In this document: piece after piece, positions 2,432 through 44,473 of the stretch
Layout: each line of letters starts with the position of its first letter
Numbering within the stretch: the first letter of the stretch is position 1
Origin: Acholeplasma sp.
Lineage (GTDB): Bacteria > Bacillota_I > Bacilli_A > Acholeplasmatales > UBA5453
DNA length: 64,000 nt
Assembly: GCA_036677365.1 (NCBI GenBank)
Contig: JAVBWN010000030.1
Coordinates: forward strand, 64,001-128,000
Direction of reading: 5' to 3'
Notes under the pieces: model-generated
Told to the model about the DNA's origin: nothing
Databases searched by the model: none
What the model saw: only the letters and a program-made list of their open reading frames with translations
Position numbers and translations under genes: made by a program

Positions 2432-3988
2432 ATGAAAAAACCATTTTATATTTCAACAGCCATCGCGTATGCTTCTGCGATTCCGCACGTTGGCAACGTG
2501 TATGAAGCCATACTAGCGGATGCAATTGCACGCTTTAAGCGCTTGGACGGCTATGACGTCTATTTCCAAACTGGGACCGATGAACACGGTCAAAAAATCG
2601 AATCACGTGCCGCAGGTAAAGGTATGGAACCACAAGCGTATACCGACCTCATTTCGAATGAAATTAAACGCATTTACGCCGCTGTCGGTGTAGAGTATGA
2701 CCATTTCATCCGCACCACAGACGAAAACCATCGCCAAGTGGTACAAGCCATCTTCAAGAAACTCTATGATCAAGGCGACATCTATTTAGGTAAATATGCT
2801 GGATGGTACAGTGTTTCAGAAGAATCCTTCATCGCTGAAAAAGACATCGTTGATGGTAAAGGTCCAAATGGGGACACCTTGGTATGGACCGAAGAAGAAA
2901 CCTTCTTTTTCGATTTAAAAAAATACCAACCGAGACTCATTGAACACATCCAAAATCACCCAGAATTCATCGCACCAGAATCTAGAAAGAATGAAATGTT
3001 GAACAATTTCTTGAGCGAACCACTTCAAGATTTGTCTGTATCGAGAACCTCCTTCAAGTGGGGCATCCCTACATTCGACCCTAAACACGTCATATATGTG
3101 TGGATAGACGCTTTAACCAACTACATCAGTGGGTTGGACTTGGATGCGTCATTGACACCTTCTGAAAAGTTCAAAAAATACTGGCCAGCTGACATCCATT
3201 TGATCGGTAAAGACATCTTAAGATTCCACACGATTTATTGGCCAATCATGTTGATGGCTTTAGGGTTAGAATTACCTAAGACCGTGTTTGGTCACCCTTG
3301 GGTTTTAATCGACAAGTCGAAAATGAGTAAGTCCTTAGGTAATACGATGTATGTCGATGATATCTTGAAATACTTCAAAAAAGATACGTTGAGATATTAT
3401 GTTCTACACGAGATTCCTTTCGCAGCGGATGGTAATCTCACGTATGAATTATTGATCGAAAGAAACAACACGGATTTAGCCAACACGTTGGGTAACCTTG
3501 TGAACCGCACCATCGGTATGGCAAACAAATACCGTGGTGGTCTAGTAAAGAAAGCCAACACCCAAAAAACATATGAAATTTCATTGGTTGAAGCAACCTC
3601 GACACTTTTAGAACAAGTGCGTTTAAAGATGGACGAATACCGTGTCGCTGACGCCATTGAAGAAATTATGAAGGTATTGAGACAAGCCAATAAATTCATC
3701 GATGTCACTGAGCCTTGGAAACTATTCAAAGACGAAACAGCTCAAGCCGAACTCGATGGCGTATTGTATGAACTCTTAGAAACCATCCGCATCACTGCGG
3801 TGGTACTACGTGCATTCATTCCAGATACAGCCAATGAAATCTTGCGTCAAATCAATACAACGAAAAATACATTCGATTCGATTACCACGTTTGGTGGTTT
3901 CGAAGATGGCACACAACTCAATGCACCTGTGGTATTATTTGAACGTTATAATCCTCAGGAAAAACTTGAAGAAATCTTAAAAGGATAA
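2432..3988 (+). CDS. metG: Methionine--tRNA ligase (short MetRS1 form, no C-terminal OB domain)
   Basis: HVGN (HIGH), GTDEHGQK, YVWIDAL, GKDILRFH, KMSKS. Confidence 0.97.
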   Translation: MKKPFYISTAIAYASAIPHVGNVYEAILADAIARFKRLDGYDVYFQTGTDEHGQKIESRAAGKGMEPQAYTDLISNEIKRIYAAVGVEYDHFIRTTDENHRQVVQAIFKKLYDQGDIYLGKYAGWYSVSEESFIAEKDIVDGKGPNGDTLVWTEEETFFFDLKKYQPRLIEHIQNHPEFIAPESRKNEMLNNFLSEPLQDLSVSRTSFKWGIPTFDPKHVIYVWIDALTNYISGLDLDASLTPSEKFKKYWPADIHLIGKDILRFHTIYWPIMLMALGLELPKTVFGHPWVLIDKSKMSKSLGNTMYVDDILKYFKKDTLRYYVLHEIPFAADGNLTYELLIERNNTDLANTLGNLVNRTIGMANKYRGGLVKKANTQKTYEISLVEATSTLLEQVRLKMDEYRVADAIEEIMKVLRQANKFIDVTEPWKLFKDETAQAELDGVLYELLETIRITAVVLRAFIPDTANEILRQINTTKNTFDSITTFGGFEDGTQLNAPVVLFERYNPQEKLEEILKG

Positions 3989-3990
3989 AC

Positions 3991-4890
3991 ATGGGCAATC
4001 TATTTAAGAATAATGAAAAACTATTTCTTGAATTACGCGCGCTGTTCGCTGTGACACTGTTTACCATCGTGTATGGTATTGGTGTCAGCTGGTTTCTTGA
4101 AGCCGCAGCAGAACCGCTTTATACAGGGGGTATCCCAGGGATTGGTCAGTTAACCCGAAACATTTTAAACAGTGAATTCGGCTTGAATTTAGGCAACAGT
4201 TTCTTAGGGATATTCATTATGGTTGGAAACATCCCAATCCTCATCTTGGGCTGGTTTGGTGTCTCTAAACGATTCACCATTTATTCCATCATATCGGTCG
4301 TCATTCAATCCACCATTTTAGGTTTCATCCCGGTTGTAGATATGGGCATCGATGATACCTTTGTCTTAGCCGTCATGGGCGGTTTACTCGTGGGTGTCGG
4401 TGTTGGTGGCGCACTAAAATATGGCACATCGACTGGTGGCCTTGACATCGTCGCACAATATTATTCGCTCCGTCACGGCACATCCGTCGGATTCATCTCG
4501 TTGGTGCTAAACGTAGCGATTGCGTTGTTTGGTGCGATTGTATTTGGTAGTGCAAGCGTCGCAGCATATACCATCATTCGTATCATTGTTTCAACCATGG
4601 TTACAGATAAATTACATACGGCATATAACTTTATGAAAGTTGAAATCATCACCGAATCCCCAGCACAACTCACCCAATTGATCCTTGAAAAGGTGTATCG
4701 CGGTGTGACTTTAGCGAAGGTGGAAGGCGCATATTCACATAAAGAAAAAACCATGGTCATCGTCGTGATTTCATCGTATGAACTCACACAAATTCGCAAA
4801 CTCGTTAAAGATTTTGATCCAAAAGCCTTCATGATTACACAGCCAGTGAAAACCATTCAAGGCAACTTTGCAAGAAAAACCATCGTATAA
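3991..4890 (+). CDS. YitT family membrane protein
   Basis: TGGIPG, NIP, STGGLDI, RGVT..GAYS (DUF2179-like C-terminus); multiple TM segments. Confidence 0.85.
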   Translation: MGNLFKNNEKLFLELRALFAVTLFTIVYGIGVSWFLEAAAEPLYTGGIPGIGQLTRNILNSEFGLNLGNSFLGIFIMVGNIPILILGWFGVSKRFTIYSIISVVIQSTILGFIPVVDMGIDDTFVLAVMGGLLVGVGVGGALKYGTSTGGLDIVAQYYSLRHGTSVGFISLVLNVAIALFGAIVFGSASVAAYTIIRIIVSTMVTDKLHTAYNFMKVEIITESPAQLTQLILEKVYRGVTLAKVEGAYSHKEKTMVIVVISSYELTQIRKLVKDFDPKAFMITQPVKTIQGNFARKTIV

Positions 4891-35384: not shown

Positions 35385-36149
35385 ATGATTATCGACACAC
35401 ATGCACATTTAAATATCGATGAATTCAGTGCTGAAATTGAGGCGGTTTTGAATCGTGCTCTAGCGGCGGATGTTCAAAAAATAGTGGTTATCGGCATGAA
35501 TAAACAGGCCAATCAACGCGGGATTGAATTAACTTCATACAAAGCGCTCTATGCGACGGTTGGGGTTCATCCAGCCGATGTCCATGAAGGGTTAGATTTG
35601 GAACTATTAAAACAACAATTAAAACACCCTAAGGTGGTTGCTATTGGTGAAATTGGGTTGGATTTATATTGGGTGAAAGATAACTTACCACTTCAAATCA
35701 AGATATTTAAGAAGCAACTGGATTTGGCAATCGAACTCAACTTACCTGTGGTTATCCACATGCGCGATAGTGCACAAGAAATTTACGATGTGATTAGACA
35801 CTACCCTGGTTTAAAAGGGGTCATGCACTGTTTCAGTGCAGACATAGATTGGGCCGTAAAGTTCATGGATTTGGGTCTTTATATTGGTATCGGTGGACCG
35901 GTCACATTCAAAAATAATATGACTGCTAAAATTGTAGCAGAACGCATACCGATAGAGCGACTACTGGTAGAAACAGATAGCCCTTATTTGGCACCAGCAC
36001 CTCATCGTGGCAAACGAAATGAACCTGCTTATACGCACTTAGTGGTCGAAGAAATCGCTCGACTTAGAGGTGTTTCAAAGGAAGAAATATCCAAAAAAAC
36101 ATCAGAAAACGCGATTCGTTTATTTGGTTTAGTGGAGGATTTATCATGA
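35385..36149 (+). CDS. tatD: TatD family nuclease/hydrolase
   Basis: DTHAH, GVHP, GEIGLD, IHMR, HCF, ETDSPYL. Confidence 0.93.
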   Translation: MIIDTHAHLNIDEFSAEIEAVLNRALAADVQKIVVIGMNKQANQRGIELTSYKALYATVGVHPADVHEGLDLELLKQQLKHPKVVAIGEIGLDLYWVKDNLPLQIKIFKKQLDLAIELNLPVVIHMRDSAQEIYDVIRHYPGLKGVMHCFSADIDWAVKFMDLGLYIGIGGPVTFKNNMTAKIVAERIPIERLLVETDSPYLAPAPHRGKRNEPAYTHLVVEEIARLRGVSKEEISKKTSENAIRLFGLVEDLS

Positions 36150-37213
36150 AAAAAATAATGATATTCAGTTTATTATTTATATTTATATTCACACTTTCTG
36201 GGTGTGTTCAAAGGGAATCAACAACCTATACACTGGCGGATGTACAATCACAAATCACTGAAATTTATGACCGTGTGTCACCGATGACCGTCGCGGTGGT
36301 CTCCTACGAAGAAAGCAATTATGCCAGCAAAGTAGGTCACGGTTCGGGTTTAATTTATGACCGCGTGGATGCTTCTGGTACATACACTTATTATGTGATT
36401 ACCAATTATCATGTGGTTGAATCTCAAGCCCATATTCGCATTTATAATGGTGCTAAATATTATAACGCTACACCGTTTGCTGTACATGAACCTGAGGACC
36501 TAGCGTTAGTCACATTCAATACAACAGATGATTTGCCATATTATGGTGTGGATCAGTTTTCTGGCAATAAAATCGTCACCCCTGTTGTGGGTTCATTTGT
36601 CATCGCCATCGGTACACCACTCGATTTAGATTTCTTCAATACAGCTACGATTGGTATCGTTGGGAGAACTCGAAATAACAGAATCGTTCAACACGACGCA
36701 GCCATCAATCCAGGCAATAGTGGTGGACCACTATTTGATTTGGCAGGTAATTTACTTGGTTTCAATACATGGAAACGTACAACCACAGTCACGAAAGATG
36801 GAGAGATTGCTGTGGATGGCATTGGGTTCGCCATTTCGATGACGGTTGCGAGATCTGTGGTCACCAGTTTAAGGGTAACCCAAACTTCTGTGTTTGAATC
36901 CGCCAAAATTGGGATTACTGTGATGAATATTGCAGATGCAATCACCAATAAATTCGGTGGTATTCGCCCGGAATTTATTGAAGAAACGCAAACTGCTGGG
37001 GTATATGTGGATTCAATTGTTCCGCTCAGACCAGCGGTAGGTAAGCTGTTTGAACATGATATCATCACCCATGTGAATGATGAAATCATTGTCAATTTAG
37101 AATCTTTGGGTTTGTTATTGTCAGGGATGAAGTTTGGTGATACACTGAATTTGACAGTGAGAAGATATACCAATAATCAATTCGTAACAGTCCAAGTCAG
37201 CATCACTGTATAG
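36146..37213 (+). CDS. HtrA-like trypsin serine protease lipoprotein with PDZ domain
   Basis: Lipobox LSGC; catalytic triad TNYHVV, EDLAL, NPGNSGGPL; C-terminal PDZ-like segment. Confidence 0.88.
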   Translation: MKKIMIFSLLFIFIFTLSGCVQRESTTYTLADVQSQITEIYDRVSPMTVAVVSYEESNYASKVGHGSGLIYDRVDASGTYTYYVITNYHVVESQAHIRIYNGAKYYNATPFAVHEPEDLALVTFNTTDDLPYYGVDQFSGNKIVTPVVGSFVIAIGTPLDLDFFNTATIGIVGRTRNNRIVQHDAAINPGNSGGPLFDLAGNLLGFNTWKRTTTVTKDGEIAVDGIGFAISMTVARSVVTSLRVTQTSVFESAKIGITVMNIADAITNKFGGIRPEFIEETQTAGVYVDSIVPLRPAVGKLFEHDIITHVNDEIIVNLESLGLLLSGMKFGDTLNLTVRRYTNNQFVTVQVSITV

Positions 37214-37222
37214 GAGGCAATC

Positions 37223-38002
37223 ATGACATTCAGCAGCATGTTATTTAAAATCGAAACGGGTCAACCATTAAACGATAAAAGCATAGAAAAATTAGCCAAA
37301 AAAATGTATTTAGCGCCTTCATCTGCACGCAGTTTTCTATACACTTTGTGGCTTTTAACTATTTTATTGTTTTTGGCCCTCGCAGCTGTGGACGGATTAA
37401 AACCGGTCTCGCCACTCGTTGTTTATGTATTCGCCGTCGGATTATTGATTGGATTGATTCTATATGCAATATTGCCAAAATACATCCGTATTCACCAATA
37501 CTTGAACGCTGTAGATACTTTTTATGAAACCAAGTTCAGTGGACTAGATCATTATGATTTATACTATATCGGGCAACACCGTTCACCACATGTTCGAACA
37601 CTCAAATCCAACAAAATTTATCTTTTGACCGATGGACATCACTTGCTATTTATCGACGATTATTTTAAGGATACTAAGTACCAGTTACCACGTATATTTA
37701 GCGCAGATAAACCTGTTAATTTGCGTGTGATCGACGCTGAAAAAAACGATCAATCACGTGTCTTAATTGACATATCTGAGGTTGAACACTACGTATCATC
37801 GAAGCGTGATTTACCTCTCAATAAAAAACCATTGAATCCAAAATATCAACGCATATTTGAAACATTTTTAGATCAAGATCCACACATGGATGAACAATAC
37901 TTCGTCACCCTAAAACTTTATAATGGCGCGGTTTTCCGATTAGGATATGACGCCTATAAAGCACTCAAATTTGCGATACCACTAAAGGATAAAACACGAT
38001 GA
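37223..38002 (+). CDS. Hypothetical membrane protein (2 TM + soluble domain)
   Basis: AGGAGG RBS; two hydrophobic helices; in operon with neighbours. Confidence 0.7.
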   Translation: MTFSSMLFKIETGQPLNDKSIEKLAKKMYLAPSSARSFLYTLWLLTILLFLALAAVDGLKPVSPLVVYVFAVGLLIGLILYAILPKYIRIHQYLNAVDTFYETKFSGLDHYDLYYIGQHRSPHVRTLKSNKIYLLTDGHHLLFIDDYFKDTKYQLPRIFSADKPVNLRVIDAEKNDQSRVLIDISEVEHYVSSKRDLPLNKKPLNPKYQRIFETFLDQDPHMDEQYFVTLKLYNGAVFRLGYDAYKALKFAIPLKDKTR

Positions 38003-38469
38003 GTGACGTTCAAAAAGTAGCCCAAATTTTGATGGAATATGAGTATAAGATTGCTTTTGCTGAATCCATGACTGGTGGCGCACTTGTGTCTGAACTTGTG
38101 AAGATTCCCAATGTATCATCGATCCTAGACTACAGTGTGGTAACCTACTCGGAATTGGCCAAAGAAACGGTGTTGGGTATTCCAAAAATGTTGTTTGATG
38201 TCCATGGTGTGGTTTCTAAAGTCATCGCCATTGAAATGGCAAAAAATATCGCAACTATAGCAAAAGCCGAAGTCGGTGTTGGCATCACAGGCAATGCTGG
38301 ACCCACAGCACAAGCCAATTCACAAGTGGGTGAAGTGTGGTTTGCCTTTTACTATCAAGGAGAATCCTATAGTTATCACTTGCAACTAAAAAATGAAGGT
38401 AGAGAAGCCATCATTGAACATGCGAAAAAAGTGGTCTATCAAATGTTATTAAAACTGCTTACAAAATGA
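37999..38469 (+). CDS. CinA/PncC-like NMN deamidase domain protein
   Basis: AESMTGG, VTYS..K, HGVVS, GITGNAGP. Confidence 0.88.
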   Translation: MSDVQKVAQILMEYEYKIAFAESMTGGALVSELVKIPNVSSILDYSVVTYSELAKETVLGIPKMLFDVHGVVSKVIAIEMAKNIATIAKAEVGVGITGNAGPTAQANSQVGEVWFAFYYQGESYSYHLQLKNEGREAIIEHAKKVVYQMLLKLLTK

Positions 38470-38585: not shown

Positions 38586-38873
38586 ATGAAGAAATACGAA
38601 ATTATGTACATCATTCGTCCTGACCTTGAAAGCGAACAAATCAAGAGCCTTGTTGCTAACTTAAGCAACATCTTCACAGAAAGAGGTTCCGAAGTTTTAG
38701 AGCTTAAAGAGATCGGATTGAAAGAGCTAGCGTATGAAATCGAACACATGAAAAAAGGTTATTATGTGTGGAGTCTAGTGAATGCAACCAATGAAGCAAT
38801 CGCTGAATTCGATCGTGTCATCCGTATTACAGAAACAGTTATTCGCTACATCGTTGTTAAAGACGGCGAATAA
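38586..38873 (+). CDS. rpsF: 30S ribosomal protein S6
   Basis: KYEIMYIIRP, LAYEI, GYY. Confidence 0.97.
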   Translation: MKKYEIMYIIRPDLESEQIKSLVANLSNIFTERGSEVLELKEIGLKELAYEIEHMKKGYYVWSLVNATNEAIAEFDRVIRITETVIRYIVVKDGE

Positions 38874-38891: not shown

Positions 38892-39311
38892 ATGCTTAAC
38901 CGAGTTGTTTTAGTTGGGCGTATAACCAAAGACCCAGAACAAAAAAGAACACAAAGTAACACACCTGTGGTGTCATTTACATTGGCAGTCAATCGTCAAT
39001 TTTCGAATGACCAAGGTGAAAAACAAGCAGATTTTATCCAATGCGTGGCATGGTCCAAACAAGCAGAATTCATGGGCAATTATGTTAGAAAAGGCGCACT
39101 TCTAGGTTTAGAAGGTCGCATTCAAACGAGAACGTATGAAACCAACAATGGTGAAACACGTTATGTTACCGAAGTCGTTTGTGACTCAGTTCAAATTCTT
39201 GAAAGTAAACGAGATGTCGCACCTACTCAACCAAGTTACGAACCAGAGGAAGAAGACCCATTCATCAGCAAAGGAAAGAGTCTAGCTACAGAAGAAGATT
39301 TACCATTCTAA
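38892..39311 (+). CDS. ssb: Single-stranded DNA-binding protein
   Basis: [23 protein letters not shown]-terminal EDLPF. Confidence 0.97.
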
Positions 39312-39324
39312 TAGGAGGCTTAGT

Positions 39325-39555
39325 ATGCAACAAAAAGGCGGATTTAAAAGACGTCGTAAAGTGTGCTATTTTACACAAAATAAAGTTGATCATATCGATT
39401 TCAAAGATGTTGAACTATTAAAGCGTTTCACTTCCGACAGAGGCAAAATTTTACCTCGTCGTGTGACTGGAACATCAGCTAAATGGCAACGTCCACTTGC
39501 AACCGCGATCAAGCGTGCAAGACATATGGCACTACTTCCATACGTTAAAGAATAA
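39325..39555 (+). CDS. rpsR: 30S ribosomal protein S18
   Basis: [26 protein letters not shown]. Confidence 0.98.
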
Positions 39556-39562
39556 TACCACT

Positions 39563-39592
39563 ATAAAGACTTTGTTATCAAAGTCTTTTTTT
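39563..39592 (+). terminator. Terminator after rpsR
   Basis: AAAGACTTTG-ttat-CAAAGTCTTT followed by a T-tract. Confidence 0.85.
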
Positions 39593-39642
39593 ATTGATAA
39601 AATAGCGGTTTTTCGATATAATTAAGTAAAGTAGGTGAGGCC

Positions 39643-42078
39643 ATGAGAAGGATTATTGCACTGCTATTATCGATTGCAGGATTGATTACAGCGGGCATCA
39701 TTGCTTATCAACACGGCGCATTCAACAATATGGATTTCGTTCTATACTATGCCATCATAATGGCGTTTTTTGGCGCGATTGTCGTATCGATTGAATTTAT
39801 TTTAAACCACAACCGTAAACAAAAGATCAAATCGCTCAATGCCCGATTGACCGCGTGGTCGAGTTTGTCATACCATGTGAAGCAAATTGGCGATGAAGCC
39901 TTTAATGAACTACCCATTGGGATTTTTCTTTATGACAACGATAATTTCACAGTCAAATGGAGTAACCCATTCGCCAATAAAATTTTCGGTTTTGACATCG
40001 AAAACGCCTTGGTTGGTCAACTTCATGAAAGCTTAGGTAGTTTGATTAAAGACCAAGCATCGGTGACCACATTTGCTGTAGGGGATAAGCGTTATGACGC
40101 CATCAGCAGCAAGAATAACCAAGCTGTTTATTTGTTTGATGTGACTTCTCGTGAAGATATCAAAGACAAATACCTCAAACGATCCACCGCATTCGGTGTC
40201 ATTTATCTCGATAACGTTGAAGAAGCATTGTCGGGATTCGATATTTATGAAAAATCCAATATCCGCGGTGAATATCTAGGGATCATCACCGACTGGATTC
40301 AAGAACACAAAGGGTATATTAAATTGTATACCGAAGACCGCATGACCATTGCTATGCACTATGAAGAACTACAAAAAGTGATGGCCAATAAATTTGAAAT
40401 ATTGAACCGCATTCGTGAGGTGTCAGCAAAACACCGCATCCGTATTTCAGCGTCCATCGGGATTGCCTGTTGGGAAGTTTCATTCGAAGAGTTGGGGACA
40501 CTCGCTCAAAATGCCATTGAACTCGCCGAAAAACGTGGTGGGGACCAAGCGGTTGTCAATATTCAAAATGAGAAGATCGCTTACTTCGGTGGTAAATCCA
40601 ACGCTTCTGAAAAGAGTTCAAGGGTACACGTTCGTATTCAATCACAAAACTTTAGAGAACTCATCGAAGCATCCTCTAACGTCGTCATCATGGGCCATAA
40701 GTTTGCGGATATCGATGCTTTAGGTGCAATGATTGGGGTCTTTAAAATGGCTTCTGCTTCTAAAAAAGAAGTGAAGATCGTATTTGACATCCCTGAAGTG
40801 GACAACACCGTTAAAAAAATCGTGCCATACTTAAAAGAAGAATCACCACATTTATACACACAACTCGACGAGTCCAAGAATATTTTAAAATTCATGAACA
40901 ATGACACCTTACTTGTCATCGTCGACACACAATCACCCAACATCGTCGCCAATCAAGAAGTATACAAACAAGCGAAGAAAATCGCATGTATTGACCACCA
41001 CAGACATGGTGAAAATACGTTTGAATCGATTTTTACTTATGTAGAACCATACGCATCATCCTCCGTTGAGTTGGTCGCAGAAATGATGGAGTTTTATCAA
41101 AAAGACATCGATTTATTACCCATTGAAGCAACCATCATGTATGGTGGAATCATCGTCGATACCAACGAATTCTCCTATCGAACCGGGACCAGAACGTTTG
41201 GTGCAGCCGCTTATTTGAAAGAACATGAAGCCTCTTCTGTACGTGTCAAAGAGTGGTTAAGACTCGATTTGGACCGCACATTATTGATCAACGAATTACT
41301 CAATAATGTTCAAGTCGTTACCAAAGGATTTGCTGTGGTCGTAGATGAGTCAAATGTGGTTAGAGACCGTGTTTTACTTGCCCAAACATCACAAAAAATC
41401 CTTGAGATTGAAGGTGTGAAGGCAGGCTTTACGATTGCGAGGGTCGATGAGGAATCGATTGGTATTTCCGCACGCAGTTATGATGAAATAAACGTCCAAA
41501 TCATCATGGAAGAATTGGGCGGTGGCGGTCACTTGAACAGTGCTGCTACACAAATTAAAAATCAAACGATTCCAGAAGTGTTTGAATCGTTGAAGACGTT
41601 GCTCTTAAGAGAACACGAAGAGGGAGATGAAAGAATGAAAGTAATATTAACAGAAGACGTTAAAGGCAGAGGTAAAAAGGACGACATCATCGATGTAGCG
41701 AATGGCTATGGTACATTCCTACTATCTTCAAGTAAAGCAATCCTTGCTTCGGATGAAAATATCAAAGCCATCGAAAAAGAAAAACAACTCATCAAAGAAC
41801 GCGAAGCTGAACACCTCGCCCTTATGAATAAGTTGAAACAAGAAATTGAATCCAAATCCGTCAACATCTTTATCAATATTGGTAATGATGGGAAATTGTT
41901 CGGTAGTGTAACCACCAAACAAATCGTCGAATCTTTTGAAGAACAAACCGGCATCCGATTGGATAAGAAGAAAGTTGAATTGACCTCCGAAATCAACTCT
42001 GTCGGTATTTATACAGCAACCGTATCGTTACACAAGGAAGTTAAAGCACAATTTGAAATCAATGTATTAGAGAAATAA
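39643..42078 (+). CDS. gdpP-rplI: GdpP-type c-di-AMP phosphodiesterase fused in frame to ribosomal protein L9
   Basis: 2 TM, PAS-like, degenerate GGDEF, GH..DIDALG, VDT, DHH, GGGH; then MKVILTEDVKGRGK..VANGY..GKLFGSVT (L9) with no intervening stop. Confidence 0.93.
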   Translation: MRRIIALLLSIAGLITAGIIAYQHGAFNNMDFVLYYAIIMAFFGAIVVSIEFILNHNRKQKIKSLNARLTAWSSLSYHVKQIGDEAFNELPIGIFLYDNDNFTVKWSNPFANKIFGFDIENALVGQLHESLGSLIKDQASVTTFAVGDKRYDAISSKNNQAVYLFDVTSREDIKDKYLKRSTAFGVIYLDNVEEALSGFDIYEKSNIRGEYLGIITDWIQEHKGYIKLYTEDRMTIAMHYEELQKVMANKFEILNRIREVSAKHRIRISASIGIACWEVSFEELGTLAQNAIELAEKRGGDQAVVNIQNEKIAYFGGKSNASEKSSRVHVRIQSQNFRELIEASSNVVIMGHKFADIDALGAMIGVFKMASASKKEVKIVFDIPEVDNTVKKIVPYLKEESPHLYTQLDESKNILKFMNNDTLLVIVDTQSPNIVANQEVYKQAKKIACIDHHRHGENTFESIFTYVEPYASSSVELVAEMMEFYQKDIDLLPIEATIMYGGIIVDTNEFSYRTGTRTFGAAAYLKEHEASSVRVKEWLRLDLDRTLLINELLNNVQVVTKGFAVVVDESNVVRDRVLLAQTSQKILEIEGVKAGFTIARVDEESIGISARSYDEINVQIIMEELGGGGHLNSAATQIKNQTIPEVFESLKTLLLREHEEGDERMKVILTEDVKGRGKKDDIIDVANGYGTFLLSSSKAILASDENIKAIEKEKQLIKEREAEHLALMNKLKQEIESKSVNIFINIGNDGKLFGSVTTKQIVESFEEQTGIRLDKKKVELTSEINSVGIYTATVSLHKEVKAQFEINVLEK

Positions 42079-42087
42079 GGTGAATTG

Positions 42088-43443
42088 ATGAGCCGTATCA
42101 TGCCATTTAGCCTAGAAGCCGAACAATCGGTTCTAGGTTCGGTATTCTTAAGTCCATCGGTTATGGTGGGTTTATTGGATAAATTGAATGATGAAGATTT
42201 TTATGATCGAAGAAATCAAAAAATCTTTTTTGCCTTAAGAAATCTCTATAATCGTGGAGACAAACTCGACTATACGACCGTATCGACTGAACTTGCTCAA
42301 ATGGGTGCGATGAAAGAAGTTGGTGTGGGTTATTTGTCCGAAATCACAGACTTGGTTCCAACCACAGCAAACTTAGATGCTTACGTCGACATCGTTAAAG
42401 ACTACGCCTTAAAACGTGCAGTGATTGATGCTGCTTCACGCATCATGGAAGATGGGTTCAATGACCAAATCAAAGCCACTGAATTTATTGACGATGCAGA
42501 AAAGAAAATTTTCGAACTGGTTAGACGTCGTAAAGCCAGTGAATTTGTCAGAATCGATCAAGTCGCTCATGAAGTTAAAGAAAAAGCCGAAAGCAGACGT
42601 AATAAAGGTGCTTTAACTGGATTATCTTCAGGATTTTCTATGTTTGACCAAATTACTTCAGGCTTACAGCCAGAAGAACTCATCATTTTAGCGGCACGTC
42701 CTTCGATGGGTAAAAGTGCTTTTGCAATGAACATCGCATTAAACGTTGCGAAACACAACGCCAACGGCGGTGCATCCGTAGCGGTATTCTCGCTAGAAAT
42801 GAGTAATGAGCAACTCGTCGGCCGTATGCTCGCTTCTGAATCCAGAGTTGAAAACAGAAGAATCAAAACCGGTGAATTGACACCAAAAGAGTGGCAATTC
42901 GTCGATACAGCGGTAGAGTCTCTTGGCAGACTCAATGTCTTCTTTGATGATTCATCAGCCATTTCGGTTCAAGATATCCGTTCTAAATGCCGTAAACTTC
43001 GCCAAGAAGGCAAACTCGATTTTGTCGTCATTGACTATCTGCAATTGATCAAAGGGGATGAAGGTAAAAACGGTTCATCCAATGTCAATCGTCAAGAAGA
43101 AGTTGCGAAAATATCGCGTCAACTTAAAACCATGGCCAGAGAGTTGAAAATTCCTGTCATGGCGCTGTCACAGCTTTCCCGTGGCGTAGAAAAACGCGAT
43201 GATAAAAGACCGGTACTTGCAGACTTAAGAGAGTCCGGTTCCATTGAACAAGATGCCGATATCGTCTTATTCTTATACCGTGATGAATATTATTCCCACG
43301 GTCAAGTCGATAATGGAGAGACAGAATTACAGTTTGCGAAAAATCGTCAGGGTTCTGTTGGGAACGTCCTACTCTATAAATTTGAGAAAGAATACTCACG
43401 TTTCTTACAAATCACACAACGTGATGATGAACCACGAAACTAA
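42088..43443 (+). CDS. dnaB: Replicative DNA helicase
   Basis: EAEQSVLG, AARPSMGKS, FSLEM, IDYLQL, SQLSR, LRESGSIEQDAD. Confidence 0.97.
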   Translation: MSRIMPFSLEAEQSVLGSVFLSPSVMVGLLDKLNDEDFYDRRNQKIFFALRNLYNRGDKLDYTTVSTELAQMGAMKEVGVGYLSEITDLVPTTANLDAYVDIVKDYALKRAVIDAASRIMEDGFNDQIKATEFIDDAEKKIFELVRRRKASEFVRIDQVAHEVKEKAESRRNKGALTGLSSGFSMFDQITSGLQPEELIILAARPSMGKSAFAMNIALNVAKHNANGGASVAVFSLEMSNEQLVGRMLASESRVENRRIKTGELTPKEWQFVDTAVESLGRLNVFFDDSSAISVQDIRSKCRKLRQEGKLDFVVIDYLQLIKGDEGKNGSSNVNRQEEVAKISRQLKTMARELKIPVMALSQLSRGVEKRDDKRPVLADLRESGSIEQDADIVLFLYRDEYYSHGQVDNGETELQFAKNRQGSVGNVLLYKFEKEYSRFLQITQRDDEPRN

Positions 43444-43478
43444 AAAAATATCGCATGGCGCGCGCCATGCGATTTTTG
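43443..43478. terminator. Bidirectional terminator (perfect 24-bp GC palindrome)
   Basis: ATCGCATGGCGCGCGCCATGCGAT 43450-43473, flanked by A- and T-tracts, between convergent genes. Confidence 0.85.
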
Positions 43479-43976
43479 TTATCGATCGTCTTCGGTATCT
43501 ACATCGACCACTTTACCAAATCGGAACCCCGTGGTTTTAAAGCTCATATAAGCATTTTTTTGAGGGAAGAATAAGGTATTGATGATCGGTATGAGTAAGA
43601 ACATAATCCACGTTGGGTGCCATGTTTCATACAGTAAACCAACCGTAATGTAAGCAGCTGTGATCAATATCCCTACCATTTTTCTCGCATCAATCTTTCG
43701 TTCAACGATGATATTGGTGAGAGGTACTAAGAAGAATACCAACCAGCCTGGATGCCAATAACCCAACCCAAATCCAAGCCACAAGAATAACATTAAAGAT
43801 ACAAACGGCATGACTTCGGATAATCTTTTCAAAACATTGCCAGTCAATAATATCCACGATAATGGGATCAAAAGGAAAAAGGTCAAACCCAATTCTAATT
43901 TTTCAAAATATAACCAAGCGGTCAAAAATAATAACAAACTGATGAGCGGCATCGCTGCCAATAAACGTCTTTTCAT
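43479..43976 (-). CDS. Hypothetical membrane protein with three internal WHPxW-type repeats
   Basis: GGGAG RBS; LGLTFFLLIP / WHPGWLVFFLVP / WHPTWIMFLLIP. Confidence 0.75.
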   Translation of the reverse strand: MKRRLLAAMPLISLLLFLTAWLYFEKLELGLTFFLLIPLSWILLTGNVLKRLSEVMPFVSLMLFLWLGFGLGYWHPGWLVFFLVPLTNIIVERKIDARKMVGILITAAYITVGLLYETWHPTWIMFLLIPIINTLFFPQKNAYMSFKTTGFRFGKVVDVDTEDDR

Positions 43977-44038
43977 GATATCACTCCCTAAACGCATTAT
44001 AACACCAAACAAACAAAATAAAAACCGCTAAACAGCGG

Positions 44039-44473
44039 TTATTTTAAAAGTTCTGACAACATCCAAATGTGTTTTTGAAGTGCCCCACGTGTTGTTGTGA
44101 GTAAATCCACAGTCACATCGTCTTCAACGGCTTCAGCCAATTGGATGCCTTCTTTTAGTTCAGCGTCGACTTGTCTAAAGTCATTGATGACAGATTTAAT
44201 CATTTCATCTTTGGTTTCTAGTCCAGTAGCTTCTTTTAAGCTTGCGAGTTCAAGATTACCTTTAAGGGTTGCTACAGGTTTACCACCAATCATCAGAATT
44301 CTTTCAGCAATTTCATCATAAATTTCAGTTACTTGATCGTACAATTCTTCAAATTTAGCATGTAATTGGAAGAAAAGAGGACCCTTAACGTACCAGTGGA
44401 AGTTGTGTAACTTCGTATAAAGTACTGCAAAATTCGCGACTTCTTTGTTCAACAATTGTTCTAGTTTATTCAT
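44039..44473 (-). CDS. dps: Dps / MrgA ferritin-like DNA protection protein
   Basis: HNFHWYVKG, LHAKFEELY, DEIAERI, KHIWM. Confidence 0.95.
   Translation of the reverse strand: MNKLEQLLNKEVANFAVLYTKLHNFHWYVKGPLFFQLHAKFEELYDQVTEIYDEIAERILMIGGKPVATLKGNLELASLKEATGLETKDEMIKSVINDFRQVDAELKEGIQLAEAVEDDVTVDLLTTTRGALQKHIWMLSELLK

Follow-up and report, generated by a model that had tools for sequence, protein, structure and literature searches.

Why should a membrane-anchored enzyme of nucleotide signaling and a ribosomal protein be kept as one polypeptide throughout a whole clade, while the ribosomal protein is apparently still made in its free form? This question, which comparison of genomes makes testable, is raised by a locus in an Acholeplasma sp. 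genome (assembly GCA_036677365.1, contig JAVBWN010000030.1, positions 64,001 to 128,000 of the forward strand; this stretch of 64,000 nucleotides is called the window below). Positions 39643-42078 (+) of the window form one uninterrupted open reading frame (ORF) of 811 amino acids with an ATG start, in which gdpP, encoding a phosphodiesterase of cyclic di-AMP (c-di-AMP), runs into rplI, the gene for ribosomal protein L9. Comparison with related genomes suggests, with a probability that we put at roughly 0.7, that the locus gives two products, namely free L9 and a membrane-anchored GdpP-L9 polypeptide that is itself under selection. The first-pass annotation, made from the letters of the window alone, had proposed such a pair of products, and it gains indirect support here from the conservation of an internal Shine-Dalgarno (SD) sequence and start codon, from the loss of that SD where a second rplI exists, from the absence of regained stop codons at the junction, and from purifying selection on the fused L9 domain.

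The reading frame is as had been claimed. The L9 ATG at 41635-41637 is in frame with gdpP, at codon 665 ((41635-39643)/3 = 664 codons precede it), the motif AGGGAG lies ahead of it at 41621-41626, and no stop codon intervenes; the same open junction is found in 110 distinct loci. The first part of the protein has the domain order of GdpP, that is, PAS, degenerate GGDEF, DHH, and DHHA1, with all four Pfam models above their cut-offs. In an alignment of 35 diverse fused proteins, residues D356, D358, D428, and D451-H452-H453 are invariant, as are G627-G628-G629-H630 in DHHA1; these DHH and GGGH residues are the ones that we take to be catalytic in GdpP. Solved GdpP structures align to amino acids 87-653 (9n0l) and 326-654 (5xsi), and the same genome encodes a diadenylate cyclase (PF02457, 134.5 bits). 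The GdpP part is, on the strength of such matches, a predicted c-di-AMP phosphodiesterase of the GdpP type. The second part scores 114.4 bits against the L9 equivalog model TIGR00158 (cut-off 58.6) and aligns over amino acids 665-810 to the L9 structure 1div, with many ribosome entries also matching. As the fused gene is the only L9 match in this genome, which is 99.86% complete, a free L9 would be needed from this locus. The closest titled protein matches come from a Bacillota metagenome-assembled genome (98% identity), an uncultured Paracholeplasma (95%), and Paracholeplasma vituli (94%).

The fusion as such had been put forward as a possible discovery, but it is already known, and the window adds another member. 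The protein matches the NCBIfam equivalog NF011110/PRK14538, named 'putative bifunctional signaling protein/50S ribosomal protein L9', with 873.6 bits (cut-off 707, E 1.4e-262) over profile positions 53-835 of 838, and this match covers the GdpP and L9 parts in one stretch of one frame. In the supplementary table of homologs by Grosjean et al. 2014 (PMC4014445), RplI is entered as 'ACL_0196 fusion' for Acholeplasma laidlawii and as 'PAM012 fusion' for the onion yellows phytoplasma, with PAM012 placed under both the RPLI and an NrnA-type column; the available L9 passages of the main text contain no discussion of the fusion, of an internal start, or of selection. No paper on the expression or function of the GdpP-L9 fusion was found by a literature search, and, as far as our searches show, its mode of expression and the selection on its fused domain are not in print. 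The supplement of PMC3139596 has no entry for ACL_0196 and PMC2408644 does not mention the fusion. The comparative proteome table of PMC3139596 lists COG0359 (L9) as absent from A. laidlawii PG-8A, presumably because the fused gene was filed elsewhere. A practical point follows, in that the fusion hides L9 from tables of gene content.

The suspicion that the fusion is lineage-wide proves correct, since it extends through the order and into five further families of the class. NF011110 matches 301 of the 307 genomes of the order, including all 178 that are at least 90% complete and all 43 genera, and its best-scoring genomes are small ones of 0.5-0.9 Mb from the same order. The L9 model likewise matches 301 of the 307. 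The listed best 150 L9 matches include 144 whose open frame spans 792-866 amino acids, and the six in shorter frames belong to fragmented assemblies; the one checked (G194) is cut at a contig end. Broken matches in G064, G088, G092, G158, and G194 were attributed to interruption by contig ends, and G251 (61% complete), with several stops, was set aside as a probable assembly error. In a sample of 150 genomes of the class, each at least 90% complete, 134 fall outside the order, and 29 of these carry stop-free fused frames, all of them in families f14, f19, f21, f22, and f28. All 11 loci fetched from these five families are fused, and none of 10 fused genomes outside the order has a second L9; nearly all genomes of the order also have a single L9. 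The fused members of the five families, together with those of family f2 within the order, score 530-690 bits, under the NF011110 cut-off. Only rows without internal stops are reliable as fusions in this class table, and rows of families f7, f12, f13, and f26 that combine an open frame of more than 800 amino acids with internal stops were rejected, the genes being separate in all nine loci fetched. One phytoplasma-like genome (G149) has two fused copies on opposite strands (C1:325974-328463 and 454124-456613, 1096.4 bits each), which suggests a duplicated region.

In other Bacillota and Clostridia, gdpP and rplI are separate but adjacent, as the annotation had stated. This holds for 22 loci and for the nine in families f7, f12, f13, and f26, and also for the yybS-gdpP-rplI operon of Bacillus subtilis and the SA0012-SA0016 operon of Staphylococcus aureus in published accounts. 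The SD of rplI often lies within the end of gdpP in such loci. Unfused relatives have a single in-frame stop 1-4 codons ahead of the rplI ATG (or a short overlap); in the nine loci of the four families the stop lies 1-5 codons ahead of it, in frame in seven. A tree of the GdpP part alone, built from 133 distinct sequences and rooted on the Clostridia loci (a gene tree, not a species tree), places all 106 fused sequences in one clade with a support of 0.89, no unfused member inside it, and one parsimony change; the closest outgroups are f7 and then f12. This indicates a probable single origin of the fusion, the simplest history being that gdpP lost, once, the stop codon that had separated the SD of rplI from its ATG.

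Such a history invites the explanation that the fusion is a tolerated accident, in which only GdpP activity and free L9 matter and the L9 at the C terminus of GdpP is functionless. One lost stop codon between SD and ATG would suffice to produce it. If this were so, stop codons should return freely to the linker. Among 77 full-length fused genes (22 of 99 were left out, being shorter than 780 amino acids after trimming to the first Met), the tree length is 23.7 substitutions per site for the protein, 26.5 for codons, and 59.3 for third positions. On average, a stop would be created by 1.53 of the 27 possible single-base changes within the last three codons of the linker, and by 3.35 of 54 within the last six; if stops there were as neutral as they are in unfused relatives, some 13-30 and 30-66 gains, respectively, would be expected. 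None was found in the linkers of these 77 genes, and all 106 members of the one clade have remained fused. It therefore appears unlikely that the fusion is a mere accident; the absence of regained stops indicates, rather, that the fused polypeptide is probably kept by selection.

Two genomes, G022 and G026, offer a natural experiment on this point. They carry the fusion and, just downstream, a free rplI of 146 amino acids with its own AAAGGAG, and they are the only genomes with an extra rplI (a second L9 match in G233 was rejected as the product of a contig split and not an extra gene). The four L9 copies of G022 and G026 form one clade (support 0.88), so the free rplI is best regarded as a tandem duplicate of the fused L9 part. 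Their fused junctions are the only two without an SD, and have the weakest duplex energies of all (-1.5 and -2.3 kcal/mol), while the nearest relatives keep SDs of -8.7 to -13.3. The fused L9 domain has nevertheless remained open in both. Between the two genomes, its ratio of non-synonymous to synonymous rates (dN/dS) is 0.115 (28 non-synonymous and 44 synonymous differences; dS 0.75), as low as the 0.152 of the GdpP part and next to 0.135 for the free L9. As this value is found where ribosomal L9 is encoded separately, the fused L9 would seem to be selected in its own right. In partial favor of the accident, the fused copies fall below the free copy on both Pfam L9 models, which they still pass (47.4/45.1 against 55.3/59.0 bits).

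The translations of G022, compared by eye, differ in a further respect: since the duplication, its fused L9 (L111, 3400-3846) no longer has the G-Y and G-K-x-F-G motifs, which persist in the free copy (3917-4354). Because motifs are lost and purifying selection yet persists, the constraint on the fused L9 of G022 may differ from that on ribosomal L9.

The case for a second, free product rests on the junction itself. Over the 110 distinct fused junctions (energy means are taken from the first 99), L9 begins with ATG in 105 cases and with GTG in four, and one locus has its ATG three codons upstream. Every Val at this position is encoded by GTG, a codon that accounts for only 7.8% of Val codons in the fused genes. 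The mean energy of the duplex with the anti-SD is -9.7 kcal/mol for the 99 junctions, against -10.6 for 26 stand-alone rplI genes and -2.8 for 1797 other in-frame internal ATGs. An energy of -6 kcal/mol or lower is reached by 93 of the 99 L9 starts (94%) and by 7.8% of the 1797 control ATGs; over all junctions the count is 104 of 110. The motif mostly begins 9, 12, or 13 nucleotides ahead of the ATG (85 of the 105 junctions that have a motif). Around the GGAG/GAGG core, 77 different hexapeptides are found, and the core falls in each of the three codon phases (55/41/9), overlapping residues as different as GD, GE, EE, GG, KEA, and QEE, and GGA makes up 60% of Gly codons in the linker and 31% elsewhere. 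Because the peptide varies while the core persists in every phase and GGA is enriched, selection on the SD at the nucleotide level is favored.

A second natural experiment comes from two small, complete, phytoplasma-like genomes (G148 and G171; loci L105 and L104) that have lost the GdpP part. Their gene order is rpsF-ssb-rpsR-rplI-dnaB with a stand-alone L9 of about 151 amino acids. In its leader, this rplI retains the string known from the linker of fused phytoplasma genes. No candidate for a diadenylate cyclase (PF02457) was found in either genome, whereas all three fusion-bearing genomes of that genus have one; c-di-AMP signaling seems to have been dropped there as a unit.

Several observations weigh against the two-product reading, and some of them lend weight to the explanation that only the full-length fusion is translated, with its L9 either tethered on the ribosome or freed by proteolysis of the linker, and with SD and Met being either relics or incidental to a linker that is acidic and rich in Gly. 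Synonymous recoding of the seven codons upstream, following the codon usage of each gene, still yields a mean of -9.08 (standard deviation of the means, 0.18), compared with the observed -9.73, so that most of the SD-likeness is carried by the amino acids of the linker. The observed mean is stronger than all 300 recoding means, though by a small margin; of the 99 loci, only 8 outdo 90% of the recodings of their own sequence, and in 39 the actual SD is weaker than the median of its recodings. The SDs at phytoplasma junctions are weak, at -5 to -6.5. Conservation of the first Met of L9 could serve folding and not initiation, and another Met column (M622) is conserved to 96%. Stops would likewise not be regained if L9 could be made in no way but through the fusion. 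Other points concern the evidence more generally. The anti-SD was assumed to be canonical from general knowledge, the 3' end of the 16S rRNA not being in the assembly (the sole match to the pattern of that end in the genome was rejected as not an rRNA). The expected number of stop gains presumes equal mutation rates, neutral stops, and FastTree lengths estimated from saturated sites; the dN/dS values come from one genome pair; and each natural experiment is a single evolutionary event, serving as illustration and not as statistic. Contigs from RNA libraries cannot show starts, strand, or translation, and such libraries may contain DNA. Finally, our search of literature and supplements found no protein-level or ribosome-profiling data for any member of the fusion family.

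Against translation of the fusion alone stand, however, the SD core in its 77 contexts and three phases, carried by linkers that share no residues (QEEKP, FKEATT, EGGEP, GDEK), and the ATG or GTG at 109 of 110 starts with Val always as the rare GTG. The SD has vanished only where a separate rplI exists, and where gdpP has been deleted, what was once the linker now leads into a stand-alone rplI. This explanation would presumably also require one two-helix membrane enzyme per ribosome. We consider it unlikely, slightly more so than an accident of stop codon loss.

That the open junction reflects an error of sequencing or assembly, with a stop overlooked or a single base inserted or deleted (an indel) between two separate genes, is conceivable for a window taken from a draft assembly of 37 contigs but already refuted, as contigs from four public runs concur at the junction without an indel, 110 distinct loci, single-contig genomes among them, have it open, and a curated model of the fused protein exists. 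Run X1 provides a contig of 90 kb, probably from DNA, over 39500-43500; it differs there by 26 substitutions but by no indel, and a contig from an RNA library (X3, record 5) crosses the junction, 41508-42698, also without an indel. No difference between these independent contigs and the window is listed between 41547 and 41706, a span that includes positions 41600-41640, where the first-pass annotation had advised a check of reads.

The RNA-library contigs bear on transcription to a limited extent. Those of three runs start at 39640-39663, near the predicted promoter. In two studies (X4, record 12; X6, record 21), contigs begin at 41613 and 41616, just 5' of the SD and 19-22 nucleotides ahead of the L9 ATG, where the DNA-like contig of X1 runs through. 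These positions could mark an internal 5' end, a processing site, or a break in assembly. They are a weak hint of an additional 5' end, and the hint stays weak because other ends of RNA contigs also coincide between runs (for example, 41029 and 41040). Depth over the gdpP and rplI parts in the RNA runs cannot rank the two, as the data are contigs. A consensus scan found no internal promoter in the 3' part of gdpP, and the number of promoter-like sites in the scan equals the expectation from shuffling; no RNA structure gating the internal SD was predicted (z 0.45; 131 of 200 shuffles fold as well).

The coordinates of the locus are collected in Table 1. The SDs of neighboring genes are ordinary (GGAGG, GGGAGG, AGGAGG, and AGGTGA). 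The palindrome listed last lies between dnaB and a convergent ORF (43479-44012, -), and it looks like a bidirectional terminator that would end the unit. Farther out, ORFs identified by eye resemble an HtrA-type serine protease (36146-37213), a CinA/PncC-like protein (37999-38469), and a Dps-like protein (44039-44473, -).

Table 1. The gdpP::rplI locus and its surroundings in the window (aa, amino acids of the fused product).
Feature	Position	Strand	Basis
rpsF, ssb, rpsR (in this order)	38586-38873, 38892-39311, 39325-39555	+	Names by eye from translations and matching phytoplasma order
Terminator-like hairpin 3' of rpsR, followed by T run	39565-39588	+	10 pairs, 3 of them G-C; consensus match only
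Promoter-like site 5' of fused gene, TTGATA-17 nt-TATAAT	39594-39622	+	11/12 matches; consensus match only
SD-like AGGTGAGG ahead of gdpP start	39633-39640	+	Sequence read
gdpP::rplI fused frame, 811 codons and stop	39643-42078	+	ORF, Pfam, NF011110
N-terminal hydrophobic stretches, aa ~4-22 and ~31-53, putative two-helix membrane anchor	39643-39810	+	Translation inspected by eye
PAS_GdpP, aa 79-167	39877-40143	+	PF21370, 57.5 bits
Degenerate GGDEF of GdpP type (GGDEF_GdpP), aa 187-311	40201-40575	+	PF24898, 85.8 bits
DHH catalytic domain, aa 346-503	40678-41151	+	PF01368, 78.1 bits
DHHA1, aa 579-651	41377-41595	+	PF02272, above cut-off
Linker, aa 652-664 (...LLREHEEGDER), corresponding to gdpP 3' end and stop of unfused relatives	41596-41634	+	
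Internal SD AGGGAG, 8 nt ahead of L9 ATG, no stop between	41621-41626	+	
L9 coding part, aa 665-811, internal ATG 41635-41637	41635-42078	+	
Ribosomal_L9_N, aa 665-709			PF01281, 52.3 bits
Ribosomal_L9_C, aa 729-809			PF03948, 86.1 bits
dnaB (replicative helicase) ORF	42085-43443	+	Name from translation by eye and synteny described in PMC3750655
SD-like AAGGTGA of dnaB, overlapping rplI stop		+	Sequence read
Perfect 24-nt G+C-rich palindrome ATCGCATGGCGC/GCGCCATGCGAT, terminator-like	43450-43473	both	10 pairs, 6 of them G-C, T runs on both strands

Placed together, these elements allow a model of how the locus could work. One transcription unit would run from the promoter-like site at about 39594 through gdpP::rplI and dnaB to the terminator at about 43450. 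Initiation at the ATG at 39643 would give the 811-amino-acid, membrane-anchored c-di-AMP phosphodiesterase with a complete L9 at its C terminus, and initiation at the internal site, with its SD at 41621-41626 and ATG at 41635, would give a free L9 of 147 amino acids for the 50S subunit. We infer both that ribosomes initiate at the internal site and that the full-length protein builds up. The fusion would have arisen once, by loss of the gdpP stop, and would have been kept in the order of Acholeplasma, Anaeroplasma, and the phytoplasmas and in the five further families of the class, with both products under selection and the fused L9 domain required to play some part in GdpP. A. laidlawii can be cultured, and genetic tools for it exist (PMC10805103).

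If a GdpP-L9 polypeptide is indeed selected, this would hint that c-di-AMP turnover and the ribosome are linked, physically or through regulation. It may be hypothesized, as in the first-pass annotation, that the protein holds ribosomes at the membrane or that it ties the turnover of c-di-AMP to translation. Ribosomal protein L9 is conserved although bacteria can do without it, and its role is a matter of debate; in its N-domain topology the N terminus points away from the rRNA-binding loop. It could be speculated, tentatively and in the knowledge that it is rather improbable in this specific form, that L9 carried on membrane-bound GdpP dimers docks at the bL9 site of the 50S subunit in competition with free L9, so that c-di-AMP would be hydrolyzed at, or under the control of, translating or stalled ribosomes. 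The fused domain's retention of L9 fold signatures and its purifying selection despite a separate L9 are compatible with docking. We know of no explanation for the linkage of gdpP and rplI across Bacillota, and docking, if true, would also explain it.

How does the locus compare with what is already described? NF011110/PRK14538 has the same architecture from end to end, with no structural difference; its name says 'putative', and the model carries neither a function nor a mode of expression. The RplI entries of Grosjean et al. 2014 put the same fusion in print, but as a flag in a table. The separate gdpP (yybT) and rplI of Bacillota have the same gene order and operon, with the rplI SD within the last gdpP codons and often in the same frame. 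The stop between the two genes there yields two polypeptides, and it is this stop that is missing in the gene of the window.

The closest parallel in mechanism may be found among genes that give two in-frame products by means of an internal start, such as infB (IF2 alpha and beta), clpB, and cheA of Escherichia coli. There, one frame yields a full-length protein and a shorter C-terminal product from an internal SD and ATG or GTG, which is the mechanism proposed here. The short form in those cases is a truncated version of the same protein, whereas here it would be a complete and unrelated ribosomal protein that formerly had a gene of its own. Eukaryotic ubiquitin-ribosomal protein fusion genes likewise encode a ribosomal protein as the C-terminal part of a fusion to an unrelated protein, and their products are cleaved after translation. 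At the gdpP::rplI locus, by contrast, conservation of the SD and of the start codon suggests that L9 is initiated separately, and selection seems to act on the fusion in its uncleaved form.

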